IMG/VR virus record: IMGVR_UViG_2563366838_000011
Strand: one strand, 5' to 3'
Source: a virus
Lineage: Duplodnaviria > Heunggongvirae > Uroviricota > Caudoviricetes
DNA: 14,507 bases
Position 1 is the stretch's first letter; every line of letters begins with the position of its first letter. A program made the translations under genes and the position numbers. A model generated the notes under the pieces. That model was not told the DNA's origin, searched no databases, and saw only the letters and a list, made by a program, of their open reading frames with translations. Shown one piece after another: positions 1 to 14,507 of this stretch.

Positions 1-1254
1 ATGCTGGAACAAATGGGCATTGCCGCGAAGCAAGCCTCGTATAAATTAGCGCAACTCTCCAGCCGCGAAAAAAATCGCGTGCTGGAAAAAATCGCCGATG
101 AACTGGAAGCACAAAGCGAAATCATCCTCAACGCTAACGCCCAGGATGTTGCTGACGCGCGAGCCAATGGCCTTAGCGAAGCGATGCTTGACCGTCTGGC
201 ACTGACGCCCGCACGGCTGAAAGGCATTGCCGACGATGTACGTCAGGTGTGCAACCTCGCCGATCCGGTGGGGCAGGTAATCGATGGCGGCGTACTGGAC
301 AGCGGCCTGCGTCTTGAGCGTCGTCGCGTACCGCTGGGGGTTATTGGCGTGATTTATGAAGCGCGCCCGAACGTGACGGTTGATGTCGCTTCGCTGTGCC
401 TGAAAACCGGTAATGCGGTGATCCTGCGCGGTGGCAAAGAAACGTGTCGCACTAACGCTGCAACGGTGGCGGTGATTCAGGACGCCCTGAAATCCTGCGG
501 CTTACCGGCGGGTGCCGTGCAGGCGATTGATAATCCTGACCGTGCGCTGGTCAGTGAAATGCTGCGTATGGATAAATACATCGACATGCTGATCCCGCGT
601 GGTGGCGCTGGTTTGCATAAACTGTGCCGTGAACAGTCGACAATCCCGGTGATCACAGGTGGTATAGGCGTATGCCATATTTACGTTGATGAAAGTGTAG
701 AGATCGCTGAAGCATTAAAAGTGATCGTCAACGCGAAAACTCAGCGTCCGAGCACATGTAATACGGTTGAAACGTTGCTGGTGAATAAAAACATCGCCGA
801 TAGCTTCCTGCCCGCATTAAGCAAACAAATGGCGGAAAGCGGCGTGACATTACACGCAGATGCAGCTGCACTGGCGCAGTTGCAGGCAGGCCCTGCGAAG
901 GTGGTTGCTGTTAAAGCCGAAGAGTATGACGATGAGTTTCTGTCATTAGATTTGAACGTCAAAATCGTCAGCGATCTTGACGATGCCATCGCCCATATTC
1001 GTGAACACGGCACACAACACTCCGATGCGATCCTGACCCGCGATATGCGCAACGCCCAGCGTTTTGTTAACGAAGTGGATTCGTCCGCTGTTTACGTTAA
1101 CGCCTCTACGCGTTTTACCGACGGCGGCCAGTTTGGTCTGGGTGCGGAAGTGGCGGTAAGCACACAAAAACTCCACGCGCGTGGCCCAATGGGGCTGGAA
1201 GCACTGACCACTTACAAGTGGATCGGCATTGGTGATTACACCATTCGTGCGTAA
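1..1254 (+). CDS. proA: gamma-glutamyl phosphate reductase (glutamate-5-semialdehyde dehydrogenase), complete
   Basis: 417-aa ORF from ATG at 1 to TAA at 1252-1254; translation ([16 protein letters not shown]...[12 protein letters not shown]) recognised from memory as enterobacterial ProA; followed by tRNA-Thr as in the E. coli proA-thrW locus. Confidence 0.95.
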
Positions 1255-1368
1255 ATAAAACCGGGTGATGCAAAAGTAGCCATTTGATTCACAAGGCCAT
1301 TGACGCATCGCCCGGTTAGTTTTAACCTTGCCCACCGTGATTCACGTTCGTGAACATGTCCTTTCAGG

Positions 1369-1444
1369 GCCGATATAGCTCAGTTGGTAGAGCAGCGCAT
1401 TCGTAATGCGAAGGTCGTAGGTTCGACTCCTATTATCGGCACCA
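1369..1444 (+). tRNA. thrW: tRNA-Thr (anticodon CGU), 76 nt with encoded CCA
   Basis: GCCGATATAGCTCAGTTGGTAGAGCAGCGCATTCGTAATGCGAAGGTCGTAGGTTCGACTCCTATTATCGGCACCA: acceptor stem GCCGATA/TATCGGC, D-arm with AGCTCAGTTGGTAGAGC, anticodon CGT in loop TTCGTAA, T-arm GGTTCGACTCC, terminal CCA; integrase gene immediately downstream. Confidence 0.92.
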
Positions 1445-1461
1445 TTCAAACATCTCCCCAA

Positions 1462-1545
1462 GTCTACTAAAGTCTTTCAAAACCCCTTATAATCCGCGTA
1501 TTAAAGCCCCGTTCGTCTTTTGACGTCTACTAAAGTCCCTCAAAA
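1462..1545 (+). promoter_or_regulatory. att-proximal imperfect direct repeats GTCTACTAAAGTC(yyy)TCAAAA (1462-1482 and 1525-1545); candidate integrase arm-type or regulatory sites
   Basis: two copies of a 21-bp motif with a perfect 13-bp core GTCTACTAAAGTC, spaced 63 bp apart, between the tRNA 3' end and the integrase start. Confidence 0.35.
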
Positions 1546-1556
1546 TCTACGGTCAG

Positions 1557-1580
1557 ATGGGGGTACTTATGGGGGTATTT
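1557..1580 (+). repeat. tandem direct repeat ATGGGGGTACTT / ATGGGGGTATTT just upstream of the integrase RBS
   Basis: two adjacent 12-bp copies differing at one base; function unknown (possible protein-binding site in the int promoter region). Confidence 0.3.
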
Positions 1581-1609
1581 GCTGTTCGGTTTAGTGGAGG
1601 TACCCCCAA

Positions 1610-2824
1610 GTGAAACTCAATGCCCGTCAAATAGACACAGCCAAGCCAAAAGAGAAGGCTTACAAGCTGGCCGATGGTGGCGGTTTGTATCTCTTGGTAA
1701 AACCTAATGGAGGTAAATACTGGCGACTTAAATATCGTGTAGATGGTAAAGAGAAGCTATTGGCACTAGGTGTGTATCCTGAGGTTACTCTAGCCGATGC
1801 TCGGGCAAAACGTGAAGATGCGAAAAGAGGTATCGCTGGTGGTATCGATCCGATGGAAGCGAAACGAGAGGAAAAGATTGCCCGGGAAACGCAGTTAAAC
1901 AACACCTTCAAAGATATTGCCCTTGAGTGGCACAGCAGCAAATTAAAAAAATGGTCTGCTGGTTATGCTTCAGACATCCTCGAAGCCTTCAACAAAGATG
2001 TGTTCCCTTACATTGGCAAAAAACCAATCGCCGAAATCAAACCACTTGAACTTCTGAATGTGCTGCGGCGCATCGAGGGGCGCGGTGCTACAGAAAAAGC
2101 CAAAAAAGTGAGGCAGCGGTGCGGGGAAGTTTTCCGCTATGCAATAGTCACTGGTCGCGCAGAGTATAACCCTGCACCAGACCTTACTAGCGCGATGCAA
2201 GGCCATGAATCTAATCATTACCCTTTCCTTACAGCTAAAGAATTACCTGATTTTTTCAAGGCATTGTCCAGTTACTCAGGAAGCGCATTGGTTGTTATGG
2301 CGGCTCGTCTACTGATTATCACCGGCTTGCGGACTGGCGAACTACGTGGCGCATTATGGGATGAAATTGATTTCAACAAGGCTATCTGGGAGATACCCGC
2401 TTCACGTATGAAAATGCGGCGGCCTCATATTGTGCCATTGTCTGATCAGGCTCTTTCGCTTATTGGGAAGATTAGAGAAATAACAGGCAATTACCCTCTT
2501 ATGTTTCCCGGGCGCAATGATCCAAGGAAAACAATGAGTGAGGCCAGCATAAACCAAGTGTTTAAGCGCATTGGCTACGCTGGACGTGTAACTGGTCATG
2601 GGTTCCGGCACACTATGAGTACGATTTTGCATGAGCAGGGCTATAACACCGCGTGGATAGAAACGCAGCTCGCTCACGTTGATAAGAACTCAATTCGTGG
2701 CACATACAACCATGCGCAATATCTGGATGGAAGGCGGGAGATGCTTCAATGGTATGCCGACTATATGGATTCTCTCGAGCATGGCGGAAATGTGGTGCAT
2801 ATGGTGTTTGAAAAACACGCATGA
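1610..2824 (+). CDS. int: site-specific tyrosine recombinase, P4-type phage integrase
   Basis: 404-aa ORF with GTG start at 1610 preceded by GTGGAGG (1594-1600); N-terminal arm-binding-type region (AKPKEKAYKLADGGGLYLLVKPNGGKYWRLKYR), C-terminal catalytic region with HGFRHT and RGTYNHAQY motifs; placed directly beside a tRNA gene. Confidence 0.9.
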   Translation: MKLNARQIDTAKPKEKAYKLADGGGLYLLVKPNGGKYWRLKYRVDGKEKLLALGVYPEVTLADARAKREDAKRGIAGGIDPMEAKREEKIARETQLNNTFKDIALEWHSSKLKKWSAGYASDILEAFNKDVFPYIGKKPIAEIKPLELLNVLRRIEGRGATEKAKKVRQRCGEVFRYAIVTGRAEYNPAPDLTSAMQGHESNHYPFLTAKELPDFFKALSSYSGSALVVMAARLLIITGLRTGELRGALWDEIDFNKAIWEIPASRMKMRRPHIVPLSDQALSLIGKIREITGNYPLMFPGRNDPRKTMSEASINQVFKRIGYAGRVTGHGFRHTMSTILHEQGYNTAWIETQLAHVDKNSIRGTYNHAQYLDGRREMLQWYADYMDSLEHGGNVVHMVFEKHA

Positions 2825-2887
2825 AACAACTGGACAAGTATACAGAGGTTTACTAAAGTATAGGGGAGTAGATTGATAAAAACTCAC

Positions 2888-2937
2888 AGAGGATTGCTAT
2901 TTAACAGTTAGCCCTGGAGAAGGGCAATCGCTCTTTT
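2888..2937 (+). terminator. possible intrinsic terminator after int (imperfect stem AGAGGATTGC / GCAATCGCTCT followed by TTTT)
   Basis: about 10-bp imperfect stem with one bulge and a 26-nt loop containing an inner CCCT/AGGG hairpin, followed by TTTTAT; weak by sequence alone. Confidence 0.3.
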
Positions 2938-2967
2938 ATAAACGAAGGTGTATTGAGCCTTCTACGT

Positions 2968-3032
2968 CGCTGACAAAGCGGAATGTTCTTTAACAGGCTT
3001 TGGCGCTGACAAAGCGCAATTGTTCTTTAAAA
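2968..3032 (+). promoter_or_regulatory. 28-bp imperfect direct repeats CGCTGACAAAGCG-(G)AAT(T)-GTTCTTTAA (2968-2995 and 3004-3032); candidate operator sites in the int-alpA spacer
   Basis: two copies 36 bp apart, each with an internal CGCT/AGCG dyad; lie in the 428-bp non-coding spacer upstream of alpA. Confidence 0.4.
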
Positions 3033-3131
3033 CTACTGGATGTCACGCCTAATAGCGTGATCCTGCCGAAATGCAGGGTAGCTCTACCCTTGTGGAGCGA
3101 ACAAACCAAAACAATCTGACTATCTTTTATA

Positions 3132-3166
3132 AAAGACCGCAATATGTTTTTCATATTGTGGTCTTT
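3132..3166 (+). promoter_or_regulatory. 15-bp inverted repeat AAAGACCGCAATATG-TTTTT-CATATTGTGGTCTTT (one mismatch); candidate operator or RNA hairpin upstream of alpA
   Basis: near-perfect dyad with a 5-nt T spacer, about 90 bp upstream of the alpA start; not followed by a T-run, so not called a terminator. Confidence 0.35.
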
Positions 3167-3252
3167 GGCGTATTCGACATTTGACGCAAATAAAACTCTC
3201 GCCATTCGTTGCAGGAGGGGGTTATTGCGTCATTAGTACAGGATATTAATAA

Positions 3253-3456
3253 ATGGCTAATTACAATTCATTAATTCGTCTCTCTGAAGTTCAAAGGCGA
3301 ACTGGTTATAGCAAAGCATGGATTTATCGTCTTATTAGTCAGGGGAGGTTCCCTAAACAGGTAAAAATTGGAAGTCGGGCAATTGCTTTTGTTGAGTCTG
3401 AAATAGATGAATGGATTGAGAAGTGTATATTAGAATCTAGAGACGAGGTGGCCTGA
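3253..3456 (+). CDS. alpA: AlpA-family phage transcriptional regulator (small HTH DNA-binding protein)
   Basis: 67-aa ORF with AGGA 9 nt upstream; sequence LIRLSEVQRRTGYSKAWIYRLISQGRFPKQVKIGSRAIAFVESEIDEWI matches the AlpA/prophage CP4-57 regulator pattern; sits second after int as in P4-like islands and PICIs. Confidence 0.85.
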   Translation: MANYNSLIRLSEVQRRTGYSKAWIYRLISQGRFPKQVKIGSRAIAFVESEIDEWIEKCILESRDEVA

Positions 3457-3887
3457 TGGAAAAGAAAAACCGCCCATTACAGGCGGCTAATTCAGATATT
3501 CGTGTATCTGATGTTACGCCCCTTACAAAATCCCTTCAAGCACCAAAGCGCACACCGAAAAAGCATCGTGCCAGAGTCTATATGCTGCGTACTGGTATAG
3601 AGGGATGGACAGAAAATGACATTCTTCGCTACTGCCGTCTGTCTTCTGGTCGTAACTATGCAACAGAGTTAGAACGCCAGCTTGGAATCACTCTGGAGCG
3701 TATCGACGAAAAGAATCCTGATGGTATCGGAACACACCTTCGCTACCGTTTCTCCTGCCGTGGTGATGTTCTGAAAGTGATCACTCATATTAACCATCTT
3801 GCGAACATAAATGATCACAACGGACTTTCTCAGCAGGAAATTGCCGACATTCTGAAACTCTACCCGGACGCGTTTAACGCCGCCTAA
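3456..3887 (+). CDS. hypothetical protein, basic N-terminus, possible DNA-binding protein
   Basis: 143-aa ORF translationally coupled to alpA (TGATG overlap); Lys/Arg-rich N-terminal segment (PKRTPKKHRAR); no family recognised. Confidence 0.6.
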   Translation: MEKKNRPLQAANSDIRVSDVTPLTKSLQAPKRTPKKHRARVYMLRTGIEGWTENDILRYCRLSSGRNYATELERQLGITLERIDEKNPDGIGTHLRYRFSCRGDVLKVITHINHLANINDHNGLSQQEIADILKLYPDAFNAA

Positions 3888-3899
3888 CGGAGACTGAAA

Positions 3900-4733
3900 A
3901 TGAACATCGAAAAAAGCAGATTAATTTCTGAGGCCGCCCCTCATCTGAACGCCTCTCTGGGCACAATTAACGGTAATGAATTTGCCGCAATTGTCCCGGT
4001 TATTCCAGGTCACATCGGTGGGCGTGAAACCAATATTGTTAGCGCAAAAGCGTTACACAAAGCGTTGGGCGTGGGAAAAGACTTCTCTACATGGATCACT
4101 GATCGCATCTCTGAATATGACTTCACCATTGGGCACGATTACTCAGTCCATAAAACAATTTCCCCAAATTTGGGGAAAAGCCCGAATGGCACGGCTTACA
4201 GCAAGATTAAGCAGTCTGGCAGACCCGGCAAAGACTATCTGTTAAGTGTCGGAATGGCGAAAGAGCTGGCAATGATCGAACGCAATGATCAGGGTCGCGC
4301 TATCCGTCGTTATTTCATCCAGTGCGAGGAAGAATTACAGCGTAGCGTGCCTGAAATCGCCGCCCGCTATCGTCGCCAGCTAAAAGCCCGTATCAGTGCC
4401 GCAAACAACTTTAAGCCAATGTGCGATGCGCTGAATATGGCCCGTGCCGAGCAGGGGAAAACGACGCAGCAACACCACTACACAAACGAGAGCAATATGA
4501 TTTCTCGTATCGTTCTTGGAGGGCTAACTGCTAAGCAGTGGGCGCGGATAAATGGCTATTCTGGCGAACCTCGCGACCATATGAACGCAGAACAGCTTGA
4601 GCACCTCTCATATCTCGAAAGCACCAATATCACGTTAATTGATATGGGCATGGAATATGAGCAGCGCAAAGGAGAACTCACCCGCCTGTCGCAACGCTGG
4701 CTCGCCAAGCGTCTGGAGGCGGTCCATGTTTAA
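3900..4733 (+). CDS. phage antirepressor-like protein (AntA/Rha-type N-terminal domain)
   Basis: 277-aa ORF with GGAG 7 nt upstream; N-terminal motif SAKALHKALGVGKDFSTWITDRISEYDFTIGHDY resembles the conserved core of phage antirepressor (AntA/Rha) domains; assignment from motif memory only. Confidence 0.55.
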   Translation: MNIEKSRLISEAAPHLNASLGTINGNEFAAIVPVIPGHIGGRETNIVSAKALHKALGVGKDFSTWITDRISEYDFTIGHDYSVHKTISPNLGKSPNGTAYSKIKQSGRPGKDYLLSVGMAKELAMIERNDQGRAIRRYFIQCEEELQRSVPEIAARYRRQLKARISAANNFKPMCDALNMARAEQGKTTQQHHYTNESNMISRIVLGGLTAKQWARINGYSGEPRDHMNAEQLEHLSYLESTNITLIDMGMEYEQRKGELTRLSQRWLAKRLEAVHV

Positions 4734-4908
4734 GCCGACAGGAACACCACAACCTCAAAAACGCTACAAAGATGCCCACGGAGCACTCGTTACTGTCGAA
4801 AGCGTGTCTCACAACCGAGTGACGTTTTATCGCGACGGGTATCAATCGCCATGCGTACAACCGCTGGCGCGCTTCATGAAGGAGTTCGCGGAGGTTAACA
4901 AATGCTAA
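4726..4908 (+). CDS. small phage protein, DUF4222-like
   Basis: 60-aa ORF from ATG at 4726 with GGAGG 6 nt upstream, overlapping the upstream stop; pattern RYKDAHGALVTVESVSHNRVTFYRDGYQSPCVQPLARFMKEFAEV resembles small prophage proteins of the DUF4222 type (from memory). Confidence 0.5.
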   Translation: MFKPTGTPQPQKRYKDAHGALVTVESVSHNRVTFYRDGYQSPCVQPLARFMKEFAEVNKC

Positions 4909-5930
4909 CCGTCCAGAAGAAGATATTTTCACTGACTGCTATGTCGCAAAAATCCAGCAATATGACAGCAAAGTCTGGCATTAATACAGCAGATACAAGC
5001 AAAGCTTATCATTTTATGGTGGTAGGAGCGGATGCCTTAACTATGTCAGAAATTACGGTCGATGGTGTTAGCGTTGAGAAGGTCAGCGGCTGCGCCAGAG
5101 AATTTCTGGTCGTAGATGACCTGTTCTGCTCGCGTAGTGACTCCACAAAAATCTTCGTCCGCACGCGCGACGTTAACGAAATGAGCGCGATGTACTGTGC
5201 CTCTGGTTCTTCCAATAGTGAGTTTTCGGAGTCCATAAAAAAGAGCTTGCCGTTATGCGGCAACACGGTTTATGGTTATAAGGCACCTCATAAAACGGGT
5301 GCCGGGATTAGGACCCCGCAGGCAATCGAGGCGATACATGACGCGCCAGCGTCTTTTTTTGTATCGGCGCACACGCACACCTTATCAATGGTGGGCTGTA
5401 TGGGGCTGACTTCGGTCAGGCTGGTTTCCTTGATTGCCAGTAGTCCTAACCCTGTACAGTCCACCGCCAGCGAGCTTAGGACCTCCGGCGGTGGCTATAA
5501 ACCATCAATCAAGGAGGCTGCCACATGCTGGCTACTACCCCTACCCAAAAACCGCAATTTATCTGGATTATCGCCGCAGTTCGCCGCGATTGCCCGACAA
5601 TTACCGCCAAAATTCATCATATTGCTGCCGAGTCTGAACGCGATGCTCGCCGTTCTCTGGTGCGCGATCACATCTGCTTTTTTGCTGGTCGTATCCGCAT
5701 GGAGGTGGCACATGATTAAAACCTACGATGTGCATATGGATCCCCTCGAACGCACAAGCCAGATCATCACACTGACAGAAGTGATTAACGACATTCTGGT
5801 GAGCAACTCTCCCTCACGAGACGAAAGACTGAAGGCGTTACTCGCGATATTGGATCTCGCCGTTCGTGACGTTCATTTCCTGCTGGAAGGTGGACAAATG
5901 CCATGCAAAACGGGGGCAACCAATGAATAA
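4902..5930 (+). CDS. uncertain long ORF (342 codons); N-terminal about 125 codons protein-like, remainder of doubtful coding character
   Basis: ATG at 4902 overlaps the upstream stop (ATGCTAA) with GGAGG 9 nt upstream; the frame stays open for 1029 nt, but 5280-5520 translates to low-complexity S/T/P/L-rich sequence and contains hairpins and a terminator-like structure; the last 72 codons (from ATG 5712) look protein-like again. Confidence 0.3.
5340..5360 (+). terminator. terminator-like hairpin GACGC-GCCA-GCGTC followed by TTTTTTT, inside the long ORF
   Basis: 5-bp GC-rich stem, 4-nt loop, 7-T run at 5354-5360; a UUCG-tetraloop hairpin (CTGAC-TTCG-GTCAG, 5405-5418) and an 8-bp dyad (CCACCGCC...GGCGGTGG, 5461-5494) lie just downstream. 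Confidence 0.3.
5525..5719 (+). CDS. hypothetical small protein, alternative frame nested in the long ORF
   Basis: 64-aa ORF with strong SD (AAGGAGG) 7 nt upstream of ATG 5525; translation ([22 protein letters not shown]...RIRMEVAHD) is more protein-like than the overlapping frame of the long ORF. Confidence 0.35.
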   Translation: MLATTPTQKPQFIWIIAAVRRDCPTITAKIHHIAAESERDARRSLVRDHICFFAGRIRMEVAHD

Positions 5931-6117
5931 CTCAATTAATACCCCTCGCCTTACGTCCGCACTTCAATTAATCGAGCAAGCAGCGGCTGTCCTGGTTGCT
6001 GTCAGTCTTTCGGCTGAAGAAATGGACGCTGCTGATGTCGTGGATGCGATTAAAGCGTGCTCATCTTTGGTTAACGATGCCCGTGCCGAGCTGGTAATTC
6101 TTGGGGGTGAAAAATGA
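5923..6117 (+). CDS. hypothetical small protein (64 aa)
   Basis: ATG at 5923 overlapping the upstream stop (ATGAATAA); in frame with the track ORF 5866-6117; first gene of a coupled small-gene operon. Confidence 0.5.
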   Translation: MNNSINTPRLTSALQLIEQAAAVLVAVSLSAEEMDAADVVDAIKACSSLVNDARAELVILGGEK

Positions 6118-6377
6118 ATATCAACTTAATTTATCGTCATCCGTGTGAGCTGGAAATTGAATCATTGCTGGGGCGCGAAGAGCCATATCCAGACACATTC
6201 ACTCCCGCAGATTGCGCGACTGAACGGCTTACCAGAGCGCGCACAGGTCTGGTTCATGTGATGAATGAGATTGTTCCCTCGGTGGGAGGGGAACAGGCGA
6301 CAGTAATCAATAGCTGGCTACAAAAAGTTACCTCCCTGATAGATATCGGTTTAATCGATGTGGAGAGTGCGAAATGA
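6114..6377 (+). CDS. hypothetical protein (87 aa)
   Basis: ATGA start/stop overlap with the upstream gene, GGGGTG upstream; no family recognised. Confidence 0.55.
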   Translation: MNINLIYRHPCELEIESLLGREEPYPDTFTPADCATERLTRARTGLVHVMNEIVPSVGGEQATVINSWLQKVTSLIDIGLIDVESAK

Positions 6378-6595
6378 CCAACATCCAGCTCATTGAAGCG
6401 CAATGTCGCATCGAACAGGTTCAGACTGTTTTAGGGTTCTGGCTTGAAGGGGCCAGCCCCAGCAACAGAGACAAGTTAATGATTGGCGCGGTTATGTCAC
6501 TGCTCAATGGCGTACCAGAAGCTATTCAGGAAGCGGACGAATTGTTGGGCAAATATGAGTTACAGAATCATTCAGGCGAGGCGAAACATGAATAA
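6374..6595 (+). CDS. hypothetical protein (73 aa)
   Basis: ATGA overlap with the upstream gene, GGAGAG upstream; no family recognised. Confidence 0.55.
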   Translation: MTNIQLIEAQCRIEQVQTVLGFWLEGASPSNRDKLMIGAVMSLLNGVPEAIQEADELLGKYELQNHSGEAKHE

Positions 6596-7190
6596 TTTCT
6601 TAACTTTCCATGCAGAAGCAACGCCTGACGGCGTAAACATCATGTACCGCAGCAACGATGGCATGACAGAACGCGTTGAGACCGTCTCATATATTGATGC
6701 CGTAAATCGTCTGGATGCCGGGGATTATGACGATAAACCAGATGAAGGCATGTTTATACATCTCGCTATTGCCAGTGGCGGCAACCAGGGATATTTCGAT
6801 TACACATCACAGCATCACGTGATTATGTGGCGCTGGCTGATAGCAACAGCATTCATCAATGAAATGAGAAAGGAAAACGGCACTGTCAGCATCATTGATG
6901 ATACTGGCAATCCTTCCGAAGTGGCTGTTTATTCCAACGGCATCGTCGCCATGCCGCTGTATCCAGTAGCAGAGCGCCTCGCTATGGCAAACAACATTGA
7001 GGGCGCGATGATAGAACGTTTTGGCATCGAGTCTGGCACAGAACGCGCCATCATTTTCTACAGAGCCATGATGGATGTGGAACAAGGAGCACTGACTCCA
7101 TTTGGTCGTGAAACGCTTGCTGAACTTCACAACAGCTTTATAGCTGAACTGAATGAAAACGGCATGCCAGCGGAACCAGTGACGCACTGA
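6588..7190 (+). CDS. hypothetical protein (200 aa)
   Basis: ATG at 6588 overlapping the upstream stop by 8 nt, GAGG upstream; in frame with the track ORF 6483-7190, whose upstream extension would overlap the previous gene extensively; no family recognised. Confidence 0.6.
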   Translation: MNNFLTFHAEATPDGVNIMYRSNDGMTERVETVSYIDAVNRLDAGDYDDKPDEGMFIHLAIASGGNQGYFDYTSQHHVIMWRWLIATAFINEMRKENGTVSIIDDTGNPSEVAVYSNGIVAMPLYPVAERLAMANNIEGAMIERFGIESGTERAIIFYRAMMDVEQGALTPFGRETLAELHNSFIAELNENGMPAEPVTH

Positions 7191-7200
7191 GGATGGAGCC

Positions 7201-7542
7201 ATGATTACTAAAAATTTCCGACTGAATGCGCTGGCAAATAAGTATGCGTCAGCACTGTATAACCACATTACCTCCACCAGCGGCGGGGACTATTTCATGA
7301 TTGATGCGGACGGAGAGGCCGTCCGTGTGGAAATCGTCAATGGAGTAAAAGGCGTTCGCAGCCTGATCGATAGTTACGCACTGGCAGCCATGAAAGTGTT
7401 CTACCCGCAGTGGGAAACCGTGGGGATCGAGCTTCTTGATCGTTGCGTCACTAAGGACAGATTGACTGACGTCGGGCGTGAGATATGGCAAAGCATGGTT
7501 AATGACATGGGCGCAACTGTAGCGGGAGGTTCTCATGCGTGA
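7201..7542 (+). CDS. hypothetical protein (113 aa)
   Basis: ATG at 7201 with GAGGATGGAG upstream, 10 nt after the upstream stop; no family recognised. Confidence 0.6.
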   Translation: MITKNFRLNALANKYASALYNHITSTSGGDYFMIDADGEAVRVEIVNGVKGVRSLIDSYALAAMKVFYPQWETVGIELLDRCVTKDRLTDVGREIWQSMVNDMGATVAGGSHA

Positions 7543-7906
7543 AAATGTAGAAATGGCGCTTAGCTCCGCAATCGGAGAGCAGGTGGCAAAGATTGCTGGT
7601 GCTGTGTGGATTCATAACCTTCATTCTACTGGTGAAGAGAAAATGGCAATTCAGACGCCAGAGGGACGCACCATTACTACATCTCTGAAGCCGTCAGATG
7701 TTTGTGATCTGATTTGCGCATTCATGTACCCAGCAATGAGGACTGTCCACGGCGATAAGTGGAAACTTGCGACAACCGCTGAATTTGATATGTGGCTAAA
7801 CAATGATGGCATGCTGACTGATTACGGAATAACCAAGTGGCAGATGCTAGTTAGCCATATCGCAAACGCTATAGACCACGTGGGGTACGGTGATGCGAAA
7901 CATTGA
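7535..7906 (+). CDS. hypothetical protein (123 aa)
   Basis: ATG at 7535 with GGGAGG upstream, overlaps the upstream stop by 8 nt and the primase start; no family recognised. Confidence 0.6.
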   Translation: MRENVEMALSSAIGEQVAKIAGAVWIHNLHSTGEEKMAIQTPEGRTITTSLKPSDVCDLICAFMYPAMRTVHGDKWKLATTAEFDMWLNNDGMLTDYGITKWQMLVSHIANAIDHVGYGDAKH

Positions 7907-10649
7907 TCTTATCCGTCAGGTTATCAGTGCGTCTGAAAACAACTGGCCTCATGTGCTGGGCTGCCTGAACATAAATGTCCCTGACTCTCCGCGCCGTCAT
8001 GCTCCCTGCCCTGCATGTGGGGGCAAAGATCGATTCCGGTTCGATGACAACGGGCGCGGTAGCTTCATCTGTAATCAGTGCGGCGCTGGTGATGGGCTGG
8101 ATTTAATTAAACGCGTAAATAACTGCGACACAACAGAGGCGGCGCTTCTTGCCGCTGATGTTCTGGGTATTGATTACCGGACAACGGAAACACCAGAAGC
8201 CACCAGCCAGAAACGGGAACAACTGGAAACCGAGCGCCAGCGACGCGAACAGGAGCGCCTGAAAAGGGCAGAGAAGGACGAACAACAAAGACGGGATACG
8301 TTTTCCCGTCAGTTTGATGACATGCGCAGAAAGGCTGTAAACGGCAAATCTGATTATCTGGTTGCGAAAGGGGTAGGTGATTTTACATTCCCCGTGTTGC
8401 CCGATGGATCTCTGTTGCTGGCGCTGGTGGATAAATCCGGCGCAGTAACAGCAGCACAGACTATTACCTCACATGGTGAAAAAAGACTCCTGACAGGTTC
8501 AGCAAAGCGAGGGGCATATCACGCCATAAACGCACCAGAAACAACACAGAGCATCTTAATCGCAGAAGGGCTGGCAACGGCATTATCTGCCCATTTAATG
8601 CGTCCAGAGGCGCTGACAGTGGCGGCGATTGATGCCGGGAACCTGTTATATGTCGCCCAGGTACTGCGGGATAAATTTCCTTCAGCACAAATCATCATTG
8701 CTGCGGATAACGACCACAGCGAAGGAAGACAAAACACGGGGAGAATAGCAGCAGAAAAAGCAGCTTTATCTGTTTCTGGATGGGTGGCATTACCCCCGAC
8801 AGATCACAAAGCAGACTGGAATGATTACCACCAAAAACACGGCATTAAATGCGCCACAGAAGCGTTCAATAAGTCAATGTACCAACCACAGGGTAATGGC
8901 GTGAAACAGGAGCCACAGACCATTGAGGGAAGCGATTTTAAGGTTATGGATACCGATCCACTGAAACCAAGAATAGAAAGCCGCGAGGATGGTATTTATT
9001 GGGTATCTCCGAGAGCTGACAGCCAGAGTGGAGAAATCATCAATAACGAAAGCTGGTTATGTTCTCCGTTAAGCGTTATCGGTACTGGCAGAGACGATAA
9101 AGACCAGTATCTCATTCTTCGCTGGCTGTCGTTTGGTTCTGAAACGCCGACAACCGCTGCCATTCCACTGGCTGATATTGGTGAACGTGAAGGATGGCGC
9201 ACACTTAAAGCTGGTGGGGTAAATGTCACGACCAAAAGCAGCCTCAGAGCAATACTGGCAGACTGGCTACAACGCAGTGGCTCTCGTGAATTGTGGCGTG
9301 TTGCTCATGCCACTGGCTGGCAATGCGGAGCGTACATCATGCCTGATGGGGAAATCATCGGAACACCTGAAAATCCTGTGCTGTTCAGCGGGAGAAGCTC
9401 AGCCGCAGCCGGATATACCGTCTCAGGGAGCGCGAAAAGCTGGCGTGATAACGTGGCGCGTCTGGCCTTTGGTAACTATTCAATGATGACCGGGATCGGC
9501 GCAGCACTGGCAGCGCCATTGATTGGGCTGGTGGGCGCTGACGGGTTCGGCATTCATTTCTATGAGCAGTCGAGCGCAGGTAAGACCACCACGGCAAACG
9601 TGGCGAGCAGCTTATACGGCAACCCTGATTTACTGCGGCTGACGTGGTACGGAACCGCGCTGGGGCTGGCAAATGAGGCCGCCGCCCACAATGACGGACT
9701 AATGCCGCTTGATGAAGTTGGTCAGGGCGCTGATCCTGTCAGCGTTTCACAGTCTGCCTATGCGTTATTTAACGGTGTAGGGAAACTGCAAGGCGCTAAA
9801 GATGGTGGAAACCGGGATCTAAAACGCTGGCGTACAGTGGCAATCAGCACCGGAGAAATGGATTTAGAAACATTTATCGCTACTTCCGGGCGAAAAACCA
9901 AAGCCGGGCAACTGGTGCGACTGCTGAATATTCCGTTGAGTAAAGCAGTACGCTTTCACGATTACCAGAACGGAAAACAGCACGCAGACGCACTGAAAGA
10001 CGCTTACCAGCATCACCACGGCGCGTCCGGGCGTGAGTGGATTAAATGGCTGGCAGACCACCAGCAACAGGCTATTAAAACCGTTCGTGACTGCGAAAGC
10101 AGATGGAGAAGCCTGATCCCATCCGATTATGGTGAGCAGGTTCACCGTGTAGCCGCGCGATTTGCCATTCTGGAGGCCGCATTGTTGTTAGGCGAGGTTG
10201 TAACAGGCTGGGATGCTCAGACATGCCGTGATGCGATACAGCACAGCTATAACGCATGGTTGCGCGAGTTCGGCACAGGTAACAAAGAGCATCAGCAGAT
10301 TATTGAACAAACGGAGGCATTTCTTAATGCCTATGGGCTTAGCCGTTTTGCACCATTTCCATACAGCCCGGCAGATTTGCCCATCAAAGATTTAGCCGGA
10401 TACCGTCAGCGTGGAGAACATGACGAAAGCCCAATGATTTTCTACACATTCCCGGCCACATTTGAAAAGGAGATCGCATGTGGTTTCAACGCAAAACAGT
10501 TTGCTGAAGTGTTGAAAAAAGCCGGGATGCTAACCCCACCAAACAGCGGTCGTGGATACCAAAGAAAATCACCACGTATTCAGGGACGACAAATAAACGT
10601 TTATGTACTCAATTACCAGCCAGGAGATTATAACTCATCTGAAGAATGA
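7893..10649 (+). CDS. primase-helicase replication protein (P4 alpha-like / PICI Pri-Rep): zinc-ribbon, TOPRIM and P-loop NTPase domains
   Basis: 918-919-aa ORF (ATG 7893, or GTG 7890 as in the track); Cys motif CPACGG...CNQCG; TOPRIM-like segment ILIAEGLATALS...IIIAADNDH; Walker A motif SSAGKTT near residue 555; iteron origin immediately downstream. Confidence 0.88.
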   Translation: MRNIDLIRQVISASENNWPHVLGCLNINVPDSPRRHAPCPACGGKDRFRFDDNGRGSFICNQCGAGDGLDLIKRVNNCDTTEAALLAADVLGIDYRTTETPEATSQKREQLETERQRREQERLKRAEKDEQQRRDTFSRQFDDMRRKAVNGKSDYLVAKGVGDFTFPVLPDGSLLLALVDKSGAVTAAQTITSHGEKRLLTGSAKRGAYHAINAPETTQSILIAEGLATALSAHLMRPEALTVAAIDAGNLLYVAQVLRDKFPSAQIIIAADNDHSEGRQNTGRIAAEKAALSVSGWVALPPTDHKADWNDYHQKHGIKCATEAFNKSMYQPQGNGVKQEPQTIEGSDFKVMDTDPLKPRIESREDGIYWVSPRADSQSGEIINNESWLCSPLSVIGTGRDDKDQYLILRWLSFGSETPTTAAIPLADIGEREGWRTLKAGGVNVTTKSSLRAILADWLQRSGSRELWRVAHATGWQCGAYIMPDGEIIGTPENPVLFSGRSSAAAGYTVSGSAKSWRDNVARLAFGNYSMMTGIGAALAAPLIGLVGADGFGIHFYEQSSAGKTTTANVASSLYGNPDLLRLTWYGTALGLANEAAAHNDGLMPLDEVGQGADPVSVSQSAYALFNGVGKLQGAKDGGNRDLKRWRTVAISTGEMDLETFIATSGRKTKAGQLVRLLNIPLSKAVRFHDYQNGKQHADALKDAYQHHHGASGREWIKWLADHQQQAIKTVRDCESRWRSLIPSDYGEQVHRVAARFAILEAALLLGEVVTGWDAQTCRDAIQHSYNAWLREFGTGNKEHQQIIEQTEAFLNAYGLSRFAPFPYSPADLPIKDLAGYRQRGEHDESPMIFYTFPATFEKEIACGFNAKQFAEVLKKAGMLTPPNSGRGYQRKSPRIQGRQINVYVLNYQPGDYNSSEE

Positions 10650-10674
10650 GCTTCTTCATGTGCGTAGAAAAGGT

Positions 10675-10785
10675 GTTGGTTCAGTTGGTTCAGTTGGTTC
10701 AATTTGTAAAGAGTATTGTTTTATAAGGATTTTATTCTTTTTATTGAACCAACACTGAACCAACAACACGGTATTTTGAACCAAC
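10675..10785 (+). repeat. iteron-type replication origin: three tandem GTTGGTTCA (10675-10701), 43-bp AT-rich spacer, three inverted copies TGAACCAAC (10745-10753, 10756-10764, 10777-10785)
   Basis: read directly from sequence; sits just 3' of the primase-helicase gene, the usual ori position in P4-like satellites and PICIs; the track ORFs overlapping it (10656-10895 minus, 10716-10967 plus) are probably spurious. Confidence 0.7.
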
Positions 10786-10836
10786 ACAATGTGACTGAAT
10801 TGATGCGCACAACACCTGGCTGGCATCAGAGAGTGT

Positions 10837-10911
10837 TTTACGAGACTTTCGTAAAATCCTGTGTACAAGGGCGTGACGTTTTTGAAAGTGAGCACTACGA
10901 AATTTTCGTAG
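10837..10911 (+). promoter_or_regulatory. two related dyads TTTACGA-N5-TCGTAAA (10837-10855) and CTACGAA-ATT-TTCGTAG (10895-10911); candidate operator pair
   Basis: 7-bp perfect inverted arms sharing an ACGA/TCGT core, about 58 bp apart, in the non-coding region between the ori and the downstream operon. Confidence 0.3.
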
Positions 10912-11105
10912 TTCAGAAAACAGCCTCTGAGAAGTTGTTATGCCTGTTCAGCAAACCATCCGCATAGCTGATCGCGAATCAAATTACCAATGGAGCCAGA
11001 AGCAAGGGCAGAACTGAAAAGCGCCTGCCGTGAAGAGTAATGCGACACCATAAATATAGTTTTTAGAGTCCATAAAAAACCTGTCAAAACCTGACACACA
11101 GAACG

Positions 11106-11138
11106 ATGCCACCAGCTACTGAGCGGTGGCATTTTTTT
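11106..11138 (+). terminator. rho-independent terminator (8-bp stem ATGCCACC / GGTGGCAT, 11-nt loop, then TTTTTTT)
   Basis: perfect 8-bp GC-rich stem at 11106-11113 / 11125-11132 followed by 7 T at 11132-11138; oriented for + strand transcripts. Confidence 0.55.
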
Positions 11139-11233
11139 GTGCTATTTGTTTCATATTTTGCAATTACGATGATGAATATTGCGATTTGTGAAACTATAAT
11201 AACTGTTGTTTTATACAGTTCTAAGGGGGCGTT

Positions 11234-11395
11234 ATGGCTATTTCAGTAAAGCCGGTATTGATAAGTGAGAAGCAAATGGAAGCGATAAAGAAAATTCAGG
11301 AAGAGCAGCGTAAAAAATCAGGAATTGGAGTAGCGCCAACTCTGCATGAAATTGCACGAGGGTTAATAGATAAGGCGCTGGCAGGCTGTATGTGA
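11234..11395 (+). CDS. small protein (53 aa), possible ribbon-helix-helix-type DNA-binding regulator
   Basis: not in the ORF track (below its length cutoff); ATG at 11234 with AAGGGGG upstream and a TATAAT box at 11195-11200; translation MAISVKPVLISEKQMEAIKKIQEEQRKKSGIGVAPTLHEIARGLIDKALAGCM has a strand-helix-helix layout compatible with an RHH fold (inference). Confidence 0.45.
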   Translation: MAISVKPVLISEKQMEAIKKIQEEQRKKSGIGVAPTLHEIARGLIDKALAGCM

Positions 11396-11411
11396 AAATG
11401 GATGGCATCGC

Positions 11412-11873
11412 ATGGAACTAAAATTTATTGATAACCCTGTGCGATTACAGGCCTTTCTTAACGAGCCAGGCAATACCGAAAATATTGTTGAGCCGGGGCA
11501 CACGTACTACATCAAGCCTGATGCGGTATATCTCGGCATCTACGAAGGATTAGTGCTGGCTGGCGTTCATGAAGTGCGTAACTTCTGGCATAGCGTTGTT
11601 GAATGCCATGCGGTGTACGACCCCGGATTCCGTGGTGAATATGCACTGCAAGGACATCGATTATTCTGCAAATGGCTTCTCGAAAACTCACCATTCCTTA
11701 ACAGCATCACTATGGTTCCTGACACCACGAAATACGGACGGGCAATTATCCGTTTGCTTGGCGCTACCCGTGTTGGTCACCTTGATGATGCTTATATCAG
11801 ATGTGGTAAACCCGTCGGCGTAACGCTTTATCAGTTAACTCGGCAACAATATAAGGAATTCAGCGAATGTTAA
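11412..11873 (+). CDS. hypothetical phage protein (153 aa), first gene of the virion-protein-like operon
   Basis: ATG at 11412, 17 nt after the small ORF; its stop overlaps the next start (ATGTTAA); no family recognised; occupies the position of P22 gp14 in a 14-7-20-16-like gene order (positional inference only). Confidence 0.6.
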   Translation: MELKFIDNPVRLQAFLNEPGNTENIVEPGHTYYIKPDAVYLGIYEGLVLAGVHEVRNFWHSVVECHAVYDPGFRGEYALQGHRLFCKWLLENSPFLNSITMVPDTTKYGRAIIRLLGATRVGHLDDAYIRCGKPVGVTLYQLTRQQYKEFSEC

Positions 11874-12544
11874 TTACCCATATAGCTCATAAACATCTCA
11901 ATCGTGCCGTATACGAAAAAGGCGGTGATGGTGGTGCCTCTAAAGCTCAGGCGAAGGCCCAGCAGCAGGCAATTGATTTGCAGCGCGAGCAGTGGAATAC
12001 GGTGATGAATAATCTCAAGCCGTATGCAGAAGTCGGATTGCCTGCTTTACAACAACTACAAGGACTGATGACTCTGGAAGGGCAGAATAAAGCCGCGAAT
12101 GATTTCTTTGGTTCTGGTTTATATAAAACACAGGCAGATCAGGCCCGTTATCAGAACCTTGTCTCAGCAGAAGCTACCGGGGGGCTTGGCTCAACAGCTA
12201 CCAGTAACCAGTTATCTTCCATTGCGCCCATGCTTTATAACAATTGGCTTAGTGGGCAAATGCAAAATTATGGAAACCTGCTAAATGTCGGGATGAATGC
12301 GGCATCAGGGCAGGCAACGGCAGGGCAAAACTACGCCAATAATACCGGACAACTCTTGCAGGGGCTTGGCGCTATTCGTGCAGGTCAGGCGCAGCAGCCA
12401 TCCAGTCTTGCGCGTGGTATTGGTGGGGCAGCATCAGGCGCTTTAGCGGGTGCGCAACTTGGTTCCGTTGTTCCTGGAATAGGAACTGCGGCCGGCGCTA
12501 TTGGTGGTGGGCTTATTGGTCTTGTTGGGGGGCTTGGATTCTAA
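11867..12544 (+). CDS. putative phage DNA-ejection/internal virion protein with C-terminal glycine-zipper segment
   Basis: 225-aa ORF with AAGGA upstream; Gln/Asn/Ala-rich middle; C-terminus GIGGAASGALAGAQLGSVVPGIGTAAGAIGGGLIGLVGGLGF made of GxxxG/GxxxA repeats typical of membrane-inserting glycine zippers; size and position resemble P22 gp7-type ejection proteins (inference). Confidence 0.6.
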   Translation: MLITHIAHKHLNRAVYEKGGDGGASKAQAKAQQQAIDLQREQWNTVMNNLKPYAEVGLPALQQLQGLMTLEGQNKAANDFFGSGLYKTQADQARYQNLVSAEATGGLGSTATSNQLSSIAPMLYNNWLSGQMQNYGNLLNVGMNAASGQATAGQNYANNTGQLLQGLGAIRAGQAQQPSSLARGIGGAASGALAGAQLGSVVPGIGTAAGAIGGGLIGLVGGLGF

Positions 12545-13863
12545 TGGCGACATGGCAACTTGGCGGGCTGCCTAGCATGGCACCGCAAAATGATAATGCT
12601 CCTCGTTCTTCCGTTCCTCAGCCTGTGCAGTATCAGCAGCAGCCAAACGTAGGTTTAATGGCGCTACAGGGGCTAAGAGGCGTTGCTGAGATTAATCAGC
12701 AGGCGCAAATTTCCCAGCAGCTAAAAGAATATCAGGCACGGTTGGGTAGTGCGGTAGCTAATAATGATCGTGTTGGCGTGCATAAGTTAATGGCCCAGTA
12801 TCCCCAGTTTATGGCTGATTCTCAAAAACAGATGGGATTCATTGATGCTGAGCAAAATCGGCAGACCGCTGACGCTGCCATGAATCTGCGTCTTGCGTCA
12901 CAAACTGGAGATCCACTGACCATGCAGAAGGCCATTCAGCAGGCAAATCCAGTATTACAGCGATTTGGTCTTCCTGCTGAAGAGGTTTATCAGTCTTGGC
13001 AGAATGACCCACAGGAATTCAACAGAATCACTGACCTCATCCACCTCCATGCTGATCCAAATAGTTACTTTAGTGTTCAAGAGAAGCAGCAAGGGCAGAG
13101 TATTGCACAGCAGAACGCAGATACATCTGCATATAATGCTCAGGTTAATGCGGAGCAGGGTAATCGGCGGCTCGATATGGAGCAGTTCAAAGTCCTATCC
13201 GATAACCAACTACGCACGAGAGAAATGGTTCTGAAAGCACGACTTGGACGTGCTCAAAATGACATCGAGAGAGACAAGCTCAATGCTGAACTGAGCAAGG
13301 TACAGCAGGCGAAAGTGGAGAAGATGAACGATAAAATTAATACTGTTGCAGGTAATATCGACTCCTTGAACTCTGCGCTTGAAGTGGGTCATGAACTGGC
13401 GGGAATTGTAGGGAAACATCCTTCGGCCGTTACCCGTTCGCAGAACTATAACCCCCTGACGCTGGGGTTTGGATTCCTCCCTGATGTAGCAGAAGACACA
13501 CGAAGCCTACGCGCCAAAGCTGATGAATACAACCTAAAGGTTATTCTGCCTAGCCTAAAAGGTACTTTTGGCTCTAACCCAACCGAAGGGGAAAGGGCTG
13601 CCCTTATGCAATCTCAAAATGGCATTAAGTCAGCAACCAGCAATGAGGCATTTTTGCGAGAGTTGAATAAAGCGCAGGACGTAATTATTCGAATGCAGAA
13701 ACGACAGATTGCCGGGCTCGGTATTCCTGTAACCAAATCTAAGGACGAAGAAACTGATACCAAAATGCTGTTGCAGGATCCTTCACTGGTTAAGGATTAT
13801 GTGACCGCACATGGCTATCTGCCGGAAAGTTACTATCAGGCAAAACTTAAGGGATGGCAATGA
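12544..13863 (+). CDS. putative phage ejection/internal virion protein, Gln-rich coiled-coil protein (439 aa)
   Basis: start overlaps the upstream stop (TAATG); very Gln/Ala/Asn-rich with heptad-like charged stretches (LRTREMVLKARLGRAQNDIERDKLNAELSKVQQAKVEKMNDKIN); no family recognised; positional analog of P22 gp20 or T7 gp15 (inference). Confidence 0.6.
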   Translation: MATWQLGGLPSMAPQNDNAPRSSVPQPVQYQQQPNVGLMALQGLRGVAEINQQAQISQQLKEYQARLGSAVANNDRVGVHKLMAQYPQFMADSQKQMGFIDAEQNRQTADAAMNLRLASQTGDPLTMQKAIQQANPVLQRFGLPAEEVYQSWQNDPQEFNRITDLIHLHADPNSYFSVQEKQQGQSIAQQNADTSAYNAQVNAEQGNRRLDMEQFKVLSDNQLRTREMVLKARLGRAQNDIERDKLNAELSKVQQAKVEKMNDKINTVAGNIDSLNSALEVGHELAGIVGKHPSAVTRSQNYNPLTLGFGFLPDVAEDTRSLRAKADEYNLKVILPSLKGTFGSNPTEGERAALMQSQNGIKSATSNEAFLRELNKAQDVIIRMQKRQIAGLGIPVTKSKDEETDTKMLLQDPSLVKDYVTAHGYLPESYYQAKLKGWQ

Positions 13864-14370
13864 TGGCACAACTGACAGAAAAACAGAAAGCCTATTCCCG
13901 TCATCTCGATGAAAAATATGGTTTCCCATCAGGGACGATGGAAACATTAGTTGGCAATGAATCTAGTGGTAACGGAAGTGCCGAGTCACCGAAAGGAGCT
14001 AGAGGATTTGCTCAACTGATGCCCTCAGTAATGAGTGATGCTGGTTATCGTGGAACAGATCCGCGCTCACTGCCATTTGAAAAGCAAATGGATATCGCAG
14101 CAAACCATCTCAATAAAGGAATGAAGCGATTTGGTGATATAGGTATGGCATTGGCTGGGTATAATTCTGGCTATGCTCGTATTAATGCCGTAAGAAACGG
14201 TAAATCTACACTGCCAGATGAAACGGCTAATTACGTAAGTAAATTTGCAGATGCCGGAATAATCCCTGATGACAGTGAAATCTTGCAGTTTGCACAAACC
14301 AGTCAACATCGCAATCTTCAGCAGCCTGACTACTCAGAGCTTGATAAAGAAATCTCTCAGGTGGGAGATA
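13860..14370 (+). CDS. lytic transglycosylase (SLT) domain protein, N-terminal part of a phage internal virion/ejection-type protein, interrupted by an IS insertion
   Basis: ATG at 13860 (AAGGG 6 nt upstream, overlaps the upstream stop); SLT family-1 motifs in order: ES in VGNESSGN, GFAQLMP, AGYNSGY; the frame runs without a stop into the IS terminus at 14371, so the native 3' part is displaced. Confidence 0.6.
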
Positions 14371-14507
14371 TGAACCGCCCCGGGTTTCCTGGAGAGTGTT
14401 TTATCTGTGAACTCAGGCTGCCAGATCATCGTTTCCGATGGAAGCATAATAAGCTTTTTCTGCTTCTGCCGGAGGAGTATGGCCCAGCCTTTCCAGCAAT
14501 CGTCGAT
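14371..14507 (-). mobile_element. IS3-family insertion sequence terminus (IS629/IS1203-like), partial, continues beyond the window
   Basis: sequence from 14371 (TGAACCGCCCCGGGTTTCCTGGAGAGTG...) matches my recollection of the IS629 terminal inverted repeat; the minus strand encodes a typical IS3-family OrfB C-terminus. Confidence 0.7.
14413..14507 (-). CDS. IS3-family transposase OrfB, C-terminal fragment (5' end outside the window)
   Basis: minus-strand translation ends ...RRLLERLGHTPPAEAEKAYYASIGNDDLAA with stop TGA (complement of 14413-14415). Confidence 0.7.
   Translation of the reverse strand, partial: RRLLERLGHTPPAEAEKAYYASIGNDDLAA

Follow-up and report, generated by a model that had tools for sequence, protein, structure and literature searches.

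The sequence analysed here is a 14,507-nt stretch of DNA, IMG/VR virus record IMGVR_UViG_2563366838_000011, which we call the window; the whole of it matches Escherichia coli. It opens with proA (1-1254), a tRNA-Thr(CGT) gene follows, and an integrated island begins at the 3′ end of that tRNA gene. A first-pass annotation made from the sequence alone had described a complete satellite backbone at this tRNA gene, composed of integrase, AlpA, primase-helicase and iteron origin, and each of these elements was found where it had been placed. The features that carry the argument are listed below.

1369 to 1444, plus strand: thrW, tRNA-Thr gene (anticodon CGT), the integration target (ARAGORN; Rfam tRNA, 71.8 bits)
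1428 to 1446, plus strand: attL core, TCCTATTATCGGCACCATT, the tRNA 3′ end (junction comparison with related strains)
1610 to 2824, plus strand: tyrosine integrase of the P4/CP4-57 type with arm-binding domain (Pfam Arm-DNA-bind_3, Phage_int_M, Phage_integrase)
3253 to 3456, plus strand: AlpA, master activator of the island cycle (PF05930, E = 7e-20)
5050 to 5156, minus strand: 107-nt fragment of a P22-type small-terminase gene (gene 3, terS) with no intact open reading frame (ORF) (92.5% identity to P22 gene 3)
5135 to 5156, minus strand: 22-bp pac position, GAAGATTTTTGTGGAGTCACTA, within the terS fragment; a proposed pac-site mimic
7890 to 10649, plus strand: primase-helicase, replication initiator (Pfam Zn_Ribbon_Prim, Toprim_3, DUF927)
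10675 to 10785, no strand: iteron origin, with three direct copies of GTTGGTTCA, an A+T-rich spacer and three inverted copies
11412 to 11873, plus strand: P22 gp14 homologue (DUF2824; PF11039, E = 1.5e-61)
11867 to 12544, plus strand: P22 gp7 ejection protein (P22_gp7; PF25688, E = 7e-73)
12544 to 13863, plus strand: P22 gp20-type ejection protein, a satellite-specific allele (Inj_translocase; PF16928, E = 2e-22)
13860 to 14371, plus strand: 5′ part of the ejection protein in the gp16 position, with an N-terminal lytic transglycosylase domain (SLT; PF01464)

The element is already known. Because positions 1-14371 of the window are 97.8-98.3% identical in nucleotide sequence to the copy in E. 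coli MP1, the island is a copy of EcCIMP1, a published phage-inducible chromosomal island (PICI) at thrW. EcCIMP1 (19,963 bp; GenBank OR778291; Pick, Stadel and Raivio, ISME J 2025) sits in tRNA-Thr between proA and yagU and is flanked by the direct repeat TCCTATTATC (PMC11773190). According to the same work, it excises and circularises only when the prophage Kapi1, a Lederbergvirus, is present and induced; excision requires its own int and alpA, and the onset of lytic growth of the helper phage activates alpA. Kapi1 transduces EcCIMP1 at a very low rate, and a Kapi1-like prophage is present in 2 of 21 EcCIMP1 strains. EcCIMP1 adds to immunity against Kapi1 superinfection and leaves the Kapi1 titre after induction unlowered. 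Its authors assign it to SatelliteFinder Type C #var01 (3 of 5 core genes), and the MP1 region had first been labelled an incomplete prophage (PMC11773190). The satellite reading offered by the first-pass annotation is thus supported by experiment on a near-identical, helper-dependent element. The window and EcCIMP1 share the thrW site next to proA, the direct repeat, the gene order and an identical AlpA protein. They differ in an IS3-family insertion sequence (IS) in the gp16-like gene of the window copy. A further difference, seen in intact copies of the window variant (e.g. strain NCTC9040), is a stretch of ~1.3 kb towards the right end that in MP1 contains the second alpA.

The island is a discrete insertion of ~19.5 kb at thrW with its right end past the window, because it is bounded by attL and attR repeats, E. 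coli K-12, which lacks it, provides an unoccupied thrW site, and in strain N25 the pao genes directly adjoin it. The attR site, TCCTATTATC-GCACCATT, was located ~19.5 kb downstream of attL in NCTC9040 (locus L001, 37974-37992), where it repeats the tRNA 3′ end almost perfectly in direct orientation and is followed by the sequence that lies 3′ of thrW in K-12. Both junctions therefore fall where the annotation had expected them, on the left at the tRNA 3′ end and on the right beyond the window, and the empty site and the attR repeat that it had proposed to look for both exist. The element is also strain-variable, as had been supposed: of the 5426 complete E. coli genomes scanned, 129 carry the window over at least 80% of its length and 360 carry primase plus origin. 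An invariant block at this position with no attR repeat would have spoken against the satellite reading; instead, the block varies at thrW and the repeat is there. Immediately beyond attR, NCTC9040 has a CP4-6-like remnant (ykfI, yafW and neighbours; L001 38374-44570), so that the island stands in tandem with an older thrW element; the remnant is absent in N25.

The integrase (404 aa; three domains with E values of 1e-27 to 1e-35) starts 166 nt past the tRNA end, precisely as described, and alpA adjoins it at the same island end in the same orientation. The primase-helicase is 919 aa long (Pfam domain E = 3.5e-47) and matches phrog_1139, 'DNA primase', over its full length (E = 2e-178). It had been called P4-alpha-like, which holds for its N-terminal ~355 aa (residues 8-362, 33% identity to P4 alpha, E = 2e-34) but not for the helicase half, which is an unrelated DUF927 domain that weakly matches the SCCmec Cch helicase. 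A homology search found no full-length close homologue of this protein in any full-size phage, and its relationships thus do not point to a full-size temperate phage. Directly 3′ of the primase stop codon, three copies of GTTGGTTCA stand in tandem (10675-10701), followed by a spacer of 43 nt (84% A+T) and three inverted copies (10745-10785). Six copies were observed against 0.14 expected, a number reached in 0 of 200 shuffles. The same array lies just 3′ of the primase gene in ~70 of 82 related loci, and a few lineages have a different iteron sequence in the same place; count and conserved position together support the claimed iteron origin. The int, alpA and primase ORFs, the origin and the pac features are all intact in the window copy.

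These are the features of a Gram-negative PICI: an integrase gene at one end, alpA adjoining it in the same orientation, and a primase-replicase with an adjacent origin. The island is of the PICI kind (EcCIMP1 family) and not of the P4 family. The order described for P4-family satellites and Gram-negative PICIs is present, with int, alpA, primase and origin in sequence, and the P4-family part of that description falls with the lack of Sid, Psu and Delta and with the DUF927 helicase half. Searches with Pfam and PHROG found no Sid, Psu or Delta/Ogr in any ORF scanned, and no Ppi, Rpp or TerS-homologue gene among the island ORFs, where only the non-coding terS fragment was seen. No coat, portal, terminase, tail or lysis genes were found in the island, yet homologues of the virion-internal P22 proteins gp7, gp20 and gp16 are present. 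With the PICIs EcCICFT073 and EcCIEDL933 of Fillol-Salom et al. (2018, 2019; summarised in PMC10085698 and PMC11773190), the island shares the int-alpA-primase-replicase-origin order, an AlpA activator, a PerC-family gene and helper-dependent induction. Unlike them, it lacks Rpp, Ppi, a TerS redirection module and a cos site, carries a pac-site fragment and ejection genes, is ~20 kb long and is of SatelliteFinder Type C.

The functional element does not end at the iteron origin but extends into a P22-type ejection module. Judged by homology, the genes after the origin make up the complete P22 ejection set, gp14, gp7, gp20 and gp16, in the P22 order. The protein in the gp16 position is 908 aa long when intact and is truncated by the IS in the window. 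Amino acid identity to Kapi1 drops along the module, from 84% for gp14 and 58% for gp7 to 26% for gp20 and 24% for gp16. The best amino acid identities among sequenced phages are ~28% for gp20 and 47% for gp16 (phages Dewey and Huey). In IMG/VR, all gp20 alleles at least 80% identical to that of the window stand in a satellite context, none beside coat or portal genes, and a gp20 scan of genome contigs returned two loci only. Measured against a Leclercia relative, the four ejection genes have a synonymous divergence (dS) above 1 and a nonsynonymous-to-synonymous ratio (dN/dS) of 0.05-0.08. These comparisons suggest that the gp20 and gp16 alleles are confined to satellites and that the module is under purifying selection. 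Other E. coli copies of the island combine a backbone that is 96-100% identical with a different gp20/gp16 pair, whose nucleotide identity to any phage is ~68% at best.

Compared with P22 itself, the island keeps the gp14/gp7/gp20/gp16 order and Pfam families, and its 107-nt fragment matches gene 3 across pac. In contrast to P22, its ejection genes lie in a satellite that lacks coat, portal, terminase and tail genes, its gp20 is at most 28% identical to that of any sequenced phage, its 908-aa gp16-position protein has an N-terminal transglycosylase domain, and its pac sequence has 5 mismatches. In P22, gp7, gp20 and gp16 lie inside the virion, and the ability to escape SieA exclusion has been mapped to gp16 and gp20; particles assemble with foreign ejection-protein sets, and a mismatched gp16/gp20 pair yields non-infectious particles (PMC10883804).

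Two further observations concern the region downstream of the ejection genes. A predicted lipoprotein of 232 aa, with no phage homologue and no family match, is encoded 3′ of the gp16-like gene just past the right end of the window (L001 33730-34428). P22 has sieA at the position that matches this gene. The lipoprotein is one candidate to explain the immunity to superinfection that EcCIMP1 is reported to confer. In the Leclercia relative (L004 15853-15889), an abiF RNA (Rfam, 55.8 bits) lies downstream of the ejection module and suggests abortive-infection cargo in that copy.

The second P22-type component is the terS fragment, whose identity to P22 gene 3 spans the 22-bp pac site in the annotated P22 record (BLAST). 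The canonical P22 22-mer is GAAGATTTATCTGAAGTCGTTA, that of the window GAAGATTTTTGTGGAGTCACTA and that of MP1 (EcCIMP1) GAAGGTTTTTGTGGAGTCACTA; the island sequence differs from the canonical one at 5 of 22 positions, and the window differs from MP1 in having A instead of G at position 5. An exact search of IMG/VR for the shared 18-mer yielded 20 loci. Fourteen lie in EcCIMP1-like islands at the corresponding place, between the DUF4222 gene and the isrK RNA (listed below). Four others (L094, L101, L103 and L104) belong to P22-like prophages, where an intact P22-type terS, with a 22-mer identical to that of the island, is followed by terL; the 22-mer of the window is identical at 22 of 22 positions to that in the L104 terS, as is the MP1 22-mer to those of L094 and L103. 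The last two loci (L099 and L107) represent a more distant relative, with a primase 75% identical, in which only ~36 nt remain; they contain the same 22-mer and lie elsewhere in the element. Because this diverged relative keeps just the pac core, its retention argues that the pac sequence is functional. The L107 satellite and the L104 P22-like prophage share one genome and an identical pac 22-mer. That genome (IMG/VR UViG 2845778185; L104 and L107/L112, contigs _000002 and _000001) has a satellite gp20 81% identical to that of the window.

Kapi1 was rejected as the source of the pac fragment: its small terminase is an unrelated 143-aa protein, and sequence comparison found nothing in Kapi1 that resembles the terS fragment. 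Also rejected, as a matched helper, was the P22-like prophage co-resident with the island in strain 24A16CRGN010, whose pac is the canonical one of P22 and whose ejection proteins are quite different. The low rate of Kapi1 transfer and the scarcity of Kapi1-like prophages among EcCIMP1 strains fit a different natural helper. That helper would be a P22-like phage with a matching terS allele rather than Kapi1, a prediction that forms part of the joint reading of satellite delivery graded below.

Between alpA and the primase gene, the window holds the following features in addition to the terS fragment.

3456 to 3887, plus strand: conserved backbone protein of 143 aa with no assigned function (conserved at 57-100% across most related loci)
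3900 to 4733, plus strand: AntA/AntB-family antirepressor (PF08346, E = 1e-21)
4726 to 4908, plus strand: DUF4222 protein (PF13973, E = 6e-25)
5283 to 5359, plus strand: isrK-family small RNA (Rfam RF01394, 63 bits against a gathering score of 50)
5384 to 5471, plus strand: C4 antisense RNA, as in P1/P7 immI (Rfam RF01695, 80.2 bits against a gathering score of 45)
5525 to 5719, plus strand: Icd-like inhibitor of host cell division (NCBIfam NF033153, 70.4 bits against a cut-off of 25)
5712 to 7906, plus strand: seven small co-oriented ORFs of unassigned function (ORF list and RefSeq annotation)

This stretch (3456-7906) had been set down as mostly unassigned genes with possible anti-phage cargo. 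The first part of that statement stands for the 143-aa protein, which has no Pfam, PHROG or PADLOC match, and for the seven small ORFs (5712-5930, 5923-6117, 6114-6377, 6374-6595, 6588-7190, 7201-7542 and 7535-7906), whose PHROG matches are only to families of unknown function. It does not stand for AntA, DUF4222, the pac fragment, isrK/C4 and icd, which were recognised, and the stretch is mostly a regulatory and packaging module made up of AntA, the pac-site fragment, isrK, C4 and icd. As for anti-phage cargo, PADLOC identified no defence system among the ORFs of the stretch, only a weak match of AntA to the candidate PDC-S22.

Both RNAs score above their Rfam gathering thresholds in the window and in three relatives, and isrK is found in the relatives L001, L004 and L005. 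The C4 loop (5425-5436) is complementary to 5506-5515, which overlaps the strong icd Shine-Dalgarno sequence, and we infer that C4 regulates icd. The arrangement resembles the immI region of P1 and P7 (c4 RNA, icd and ant) in that a C4-family RNA precedes icd and has a loop complementary to the icd ribosome-binding site. It differs in lying upstream of a satellite replication operon, in the isrK-type RNA that precedes C4, and in the position of antA, upstream of the RNA rather than downstream.

The isrK, C4 and icd module lies inside a 342-aa ORF that RefSeq names 'ash family protein'. We consider this ORF doubtful as a real protein because its Pfam Phage_ASH match (nt 5271-5558) falls on the two RNA genes, isrK and C4, and the 'Ash' frame shows no third-position excess of variation across relatives (5 sequences compared). 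The Phage_ASH family call itself may be a translation of RNA genes. The icd-like ORF has a run of six T at 5678-5683 in the window and of five in NCTC9040 (L001), where the shorter run causes a frameshift in icd. A 22-nt motif, AGTTTTYRGAGTCCATAAAAAA, occurs upstream of isrK (5221-5242) and again upstream of the terminator that precedes the ejection module (11057-11078), with a weaker copy at 10900-10921, and may be a shared regulatory site.

Three features remain to the right of the origin.

11097 to 11141, plus strand: stem-loop like an intrinsic terminator, then a T run, upstream of the ejection module
11234 to 11395, plus strand: conserved 53-aa ORF, found ahead of the variable module in most family members
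14372 to 14507, no strand: one end of an IS3-family insertion sequence, by which the gp16-like gene is interrupted (divergence from intact copies at 14371)

The break point lies at 14371/14372, next to the IS terminal repeat TGAACCGCCCCGGG, and the closest genome hit (H112) has IS3 family transposase genes under the matched stretch; we take the element to be IS629-like. As the IS breaks the gp16-like gene, the supply of ejection proteins is probably impaired in the window strain. IS insertions also occur in the copies of other strains, for example an IS3 in the primase gene of DLI.6n.

A family scan with the primase recovered 80 loci at 52-100% identity. They keep the backbone and the iteron array but differ in the module that follows the 53-aa ORF, which holds a tape-measure protein (TMP) in 17 loci and, in others, a TMP-like lytic tail protein, a baseplate hub, a gpV-type spike, a tail-completion protein, a tail-tip protein or, in one type, a TerS homologue. 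The variable-module relatives are the following, with positions on their own loci.

L028, 12113 to 15139
L040, 10284 to 13407
L062, 10906 to 14910
L082, 15391 to 17855

Most of the variable-module contigs are 12-24 kb long, too short for a full phage, though some may include sequence of neighbouring prophages.

We conclude with high confidence that the window comprises the left 13 kb of an EcCIMP1-family PICI, a satellite of P22-like (Lederbergvirus) phages, with the mechanism proposed here. The direct repeats of the tRNA 3′ end, alpA induction, the need for AlpA and Int, and transfer in helper particles are established for EcCIMP1 or seen directly in the DNA, and the later steps are predicted from sequence. 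The tyrosine integrase inserted the island into the 3′ end of thrW. In the quiescent state, C4 RNA would pair with the icd ribosome-binding site and keep the icd-to-primase operon silent, as in P1 immI. As shown for EcCIMP1, lytic growth of the helper turns alpA on, and AlpA and Int are needed for the island to excise and circularise. The Zn-ribbon/Toprim/DUF927 primase-helicase would then start replication at the iteron origin directly 3′ of its own gene. Replicated DNA would be recognised through the 22-bp pac on the 107-nt terS relic and packaged by the headful mechanism, at about two island copies per 40-43 kb head, and the island would supply its gp14, gp7, gp20 and gp16 to the particles.

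A more specific proposal, which we put forward tentatively and regard as possible rather than probable, is that EcCIMP1-family satellites equip their own particles with DNA-delivery proteins, and that the minimal pac mimic names the true helper, a P22-like phage with a matching terS allele and not Kapi1. The purpose could be entry into cells whose resident prophage blocks injection (e.g. P22 SieA, via gp16/gp20) or the reverse, the exclusion of a superinfecting phage. Several points weigh against the mechanism proposed for the island. Both the entry of the island ejection proteins into virions and the role of the variant pac sequence as a packaging signal are predictions from sequence, and the evidence for C4 regulation consists of homology and complementarity. 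Kapi1, the only experimentally shown helper, has an unrelated terminase, and at least some transfer thus proceeds without the proposed pac match. Strain 24A16CRGN010 carries the island, but the pac of its co-resident P22-like prophage differs from that of the island in 5 of its 22 positions. Of the best matches listed from complete E. coli genomes, MB1159 alone (prophage in NZ_CP174273.1, near 1,580,195) is near-identical (99.9%) to the L094-type terS-terL, a figure that covers the region as a whole and is not a direct reading of its 22-bp pac. The IS in the gp16-like gene and the IS insertions in other copies indicate that some decay is under way.

The ejection module may instead be anti-phage. 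Its gp20 and gp16 might mix with the non-cognate pair of the helper to give non-infectious particles, or might disturb the DNA-entry channel of superinfecting P22-like phages, either of which would account for the superinfection immunity conferred by EcCIMP1. The P22 findings on mismatched gp16/gp20 and on the ready incorporation of foreign ejection proteins (PMC10883804) favour this explanation, as do the Kapi1 superinfection immunity in an island where no known defence system was found and the low identity of the island gp20 and gp16 to those of Kapi1. However, EcCIMP1 leaves the titre of induced Kapi1 unlowered, which speaks against virion poisoning, such poisoning would hit satellite-carrying particles equally, and expression of the module from the integrated island is an assumption; on balance, we consider an anti-phage module unlikely, though a serious rival to satellite delivery.

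The island might also be an inert remnant: a P22-like prophage at thrW would have decayed and fused with an island that brought the integrase, and what is left of it would have no present function. A non-coding terS scrap, only four P22 late genes, IS insertions in several copies and the initial labelling of the MP1 region as an incomplete prophage could all be read in this way. Such decay is hard to reconcile with precise att repeats and an unoccupied site, with an architecture that recurs in Leclercia and other relatives at dS >1 and dN/dS of 0.05-0.08, or with a distant relative that keeps only the pac 22-mer and ~14 nt at another location. The published helper-dependent excision and transfer of EcCIMP1 largely refutes it, and we regard a remnant as very improbable. 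Still less credible, to the point of being negligible, is a P4-family satellite with a P2-like helper. The resemblance to P4 includes the integrase type, AlpA-type regulation, a Zn-ribbon/Toprim primase-helicase with an N-terminal part 33% identical to P4 alpha, iteron-type origin logic, an immunity RNA of the C4 class processed from the replication-operon leader, and the Pfam Phage_ASH match. That match coincides with the isrK and C4 genes, however, and the island has no Sid, Psu or Delta/Ogr in any ORF scanned, a helicase half of DUF927 and not of the P4 alpha type, a packaging signal and virion genes of the P22 type with proposed pac/headful rather than cos packaging, and an experimental helper that is a Lederbergvirus, a P22-like podovirus and not P2.

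The island as such is another copy of a published satellite and will not surprise a specialist. What goes beyond the EcCIMP1 paper are the packaging signal, the RNA immunity module, the ejection genes and the variable relatives. That paper (PMC11773190) makes no mention of the pac fragment or of the isrK and C4 RNAs; it raises a packaging role as a possibility for the genes after the primase, and the word 'ejection' is absent from it. By homology, the genes after the origin encode ejection proteins rather than packaging factors. The paper leaves open how EcCIMP1 is packaged and why its transfer by Kapi1 is poor, and the answer proposed here is the 22-bp pac of a particular P22-type terminase allele. 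If satellite delivery is true, satellite-borne parts for DNA injection would be a form of hijacking unlike capsid resizing, terminase redirection or the use of the satellite's own capsids.

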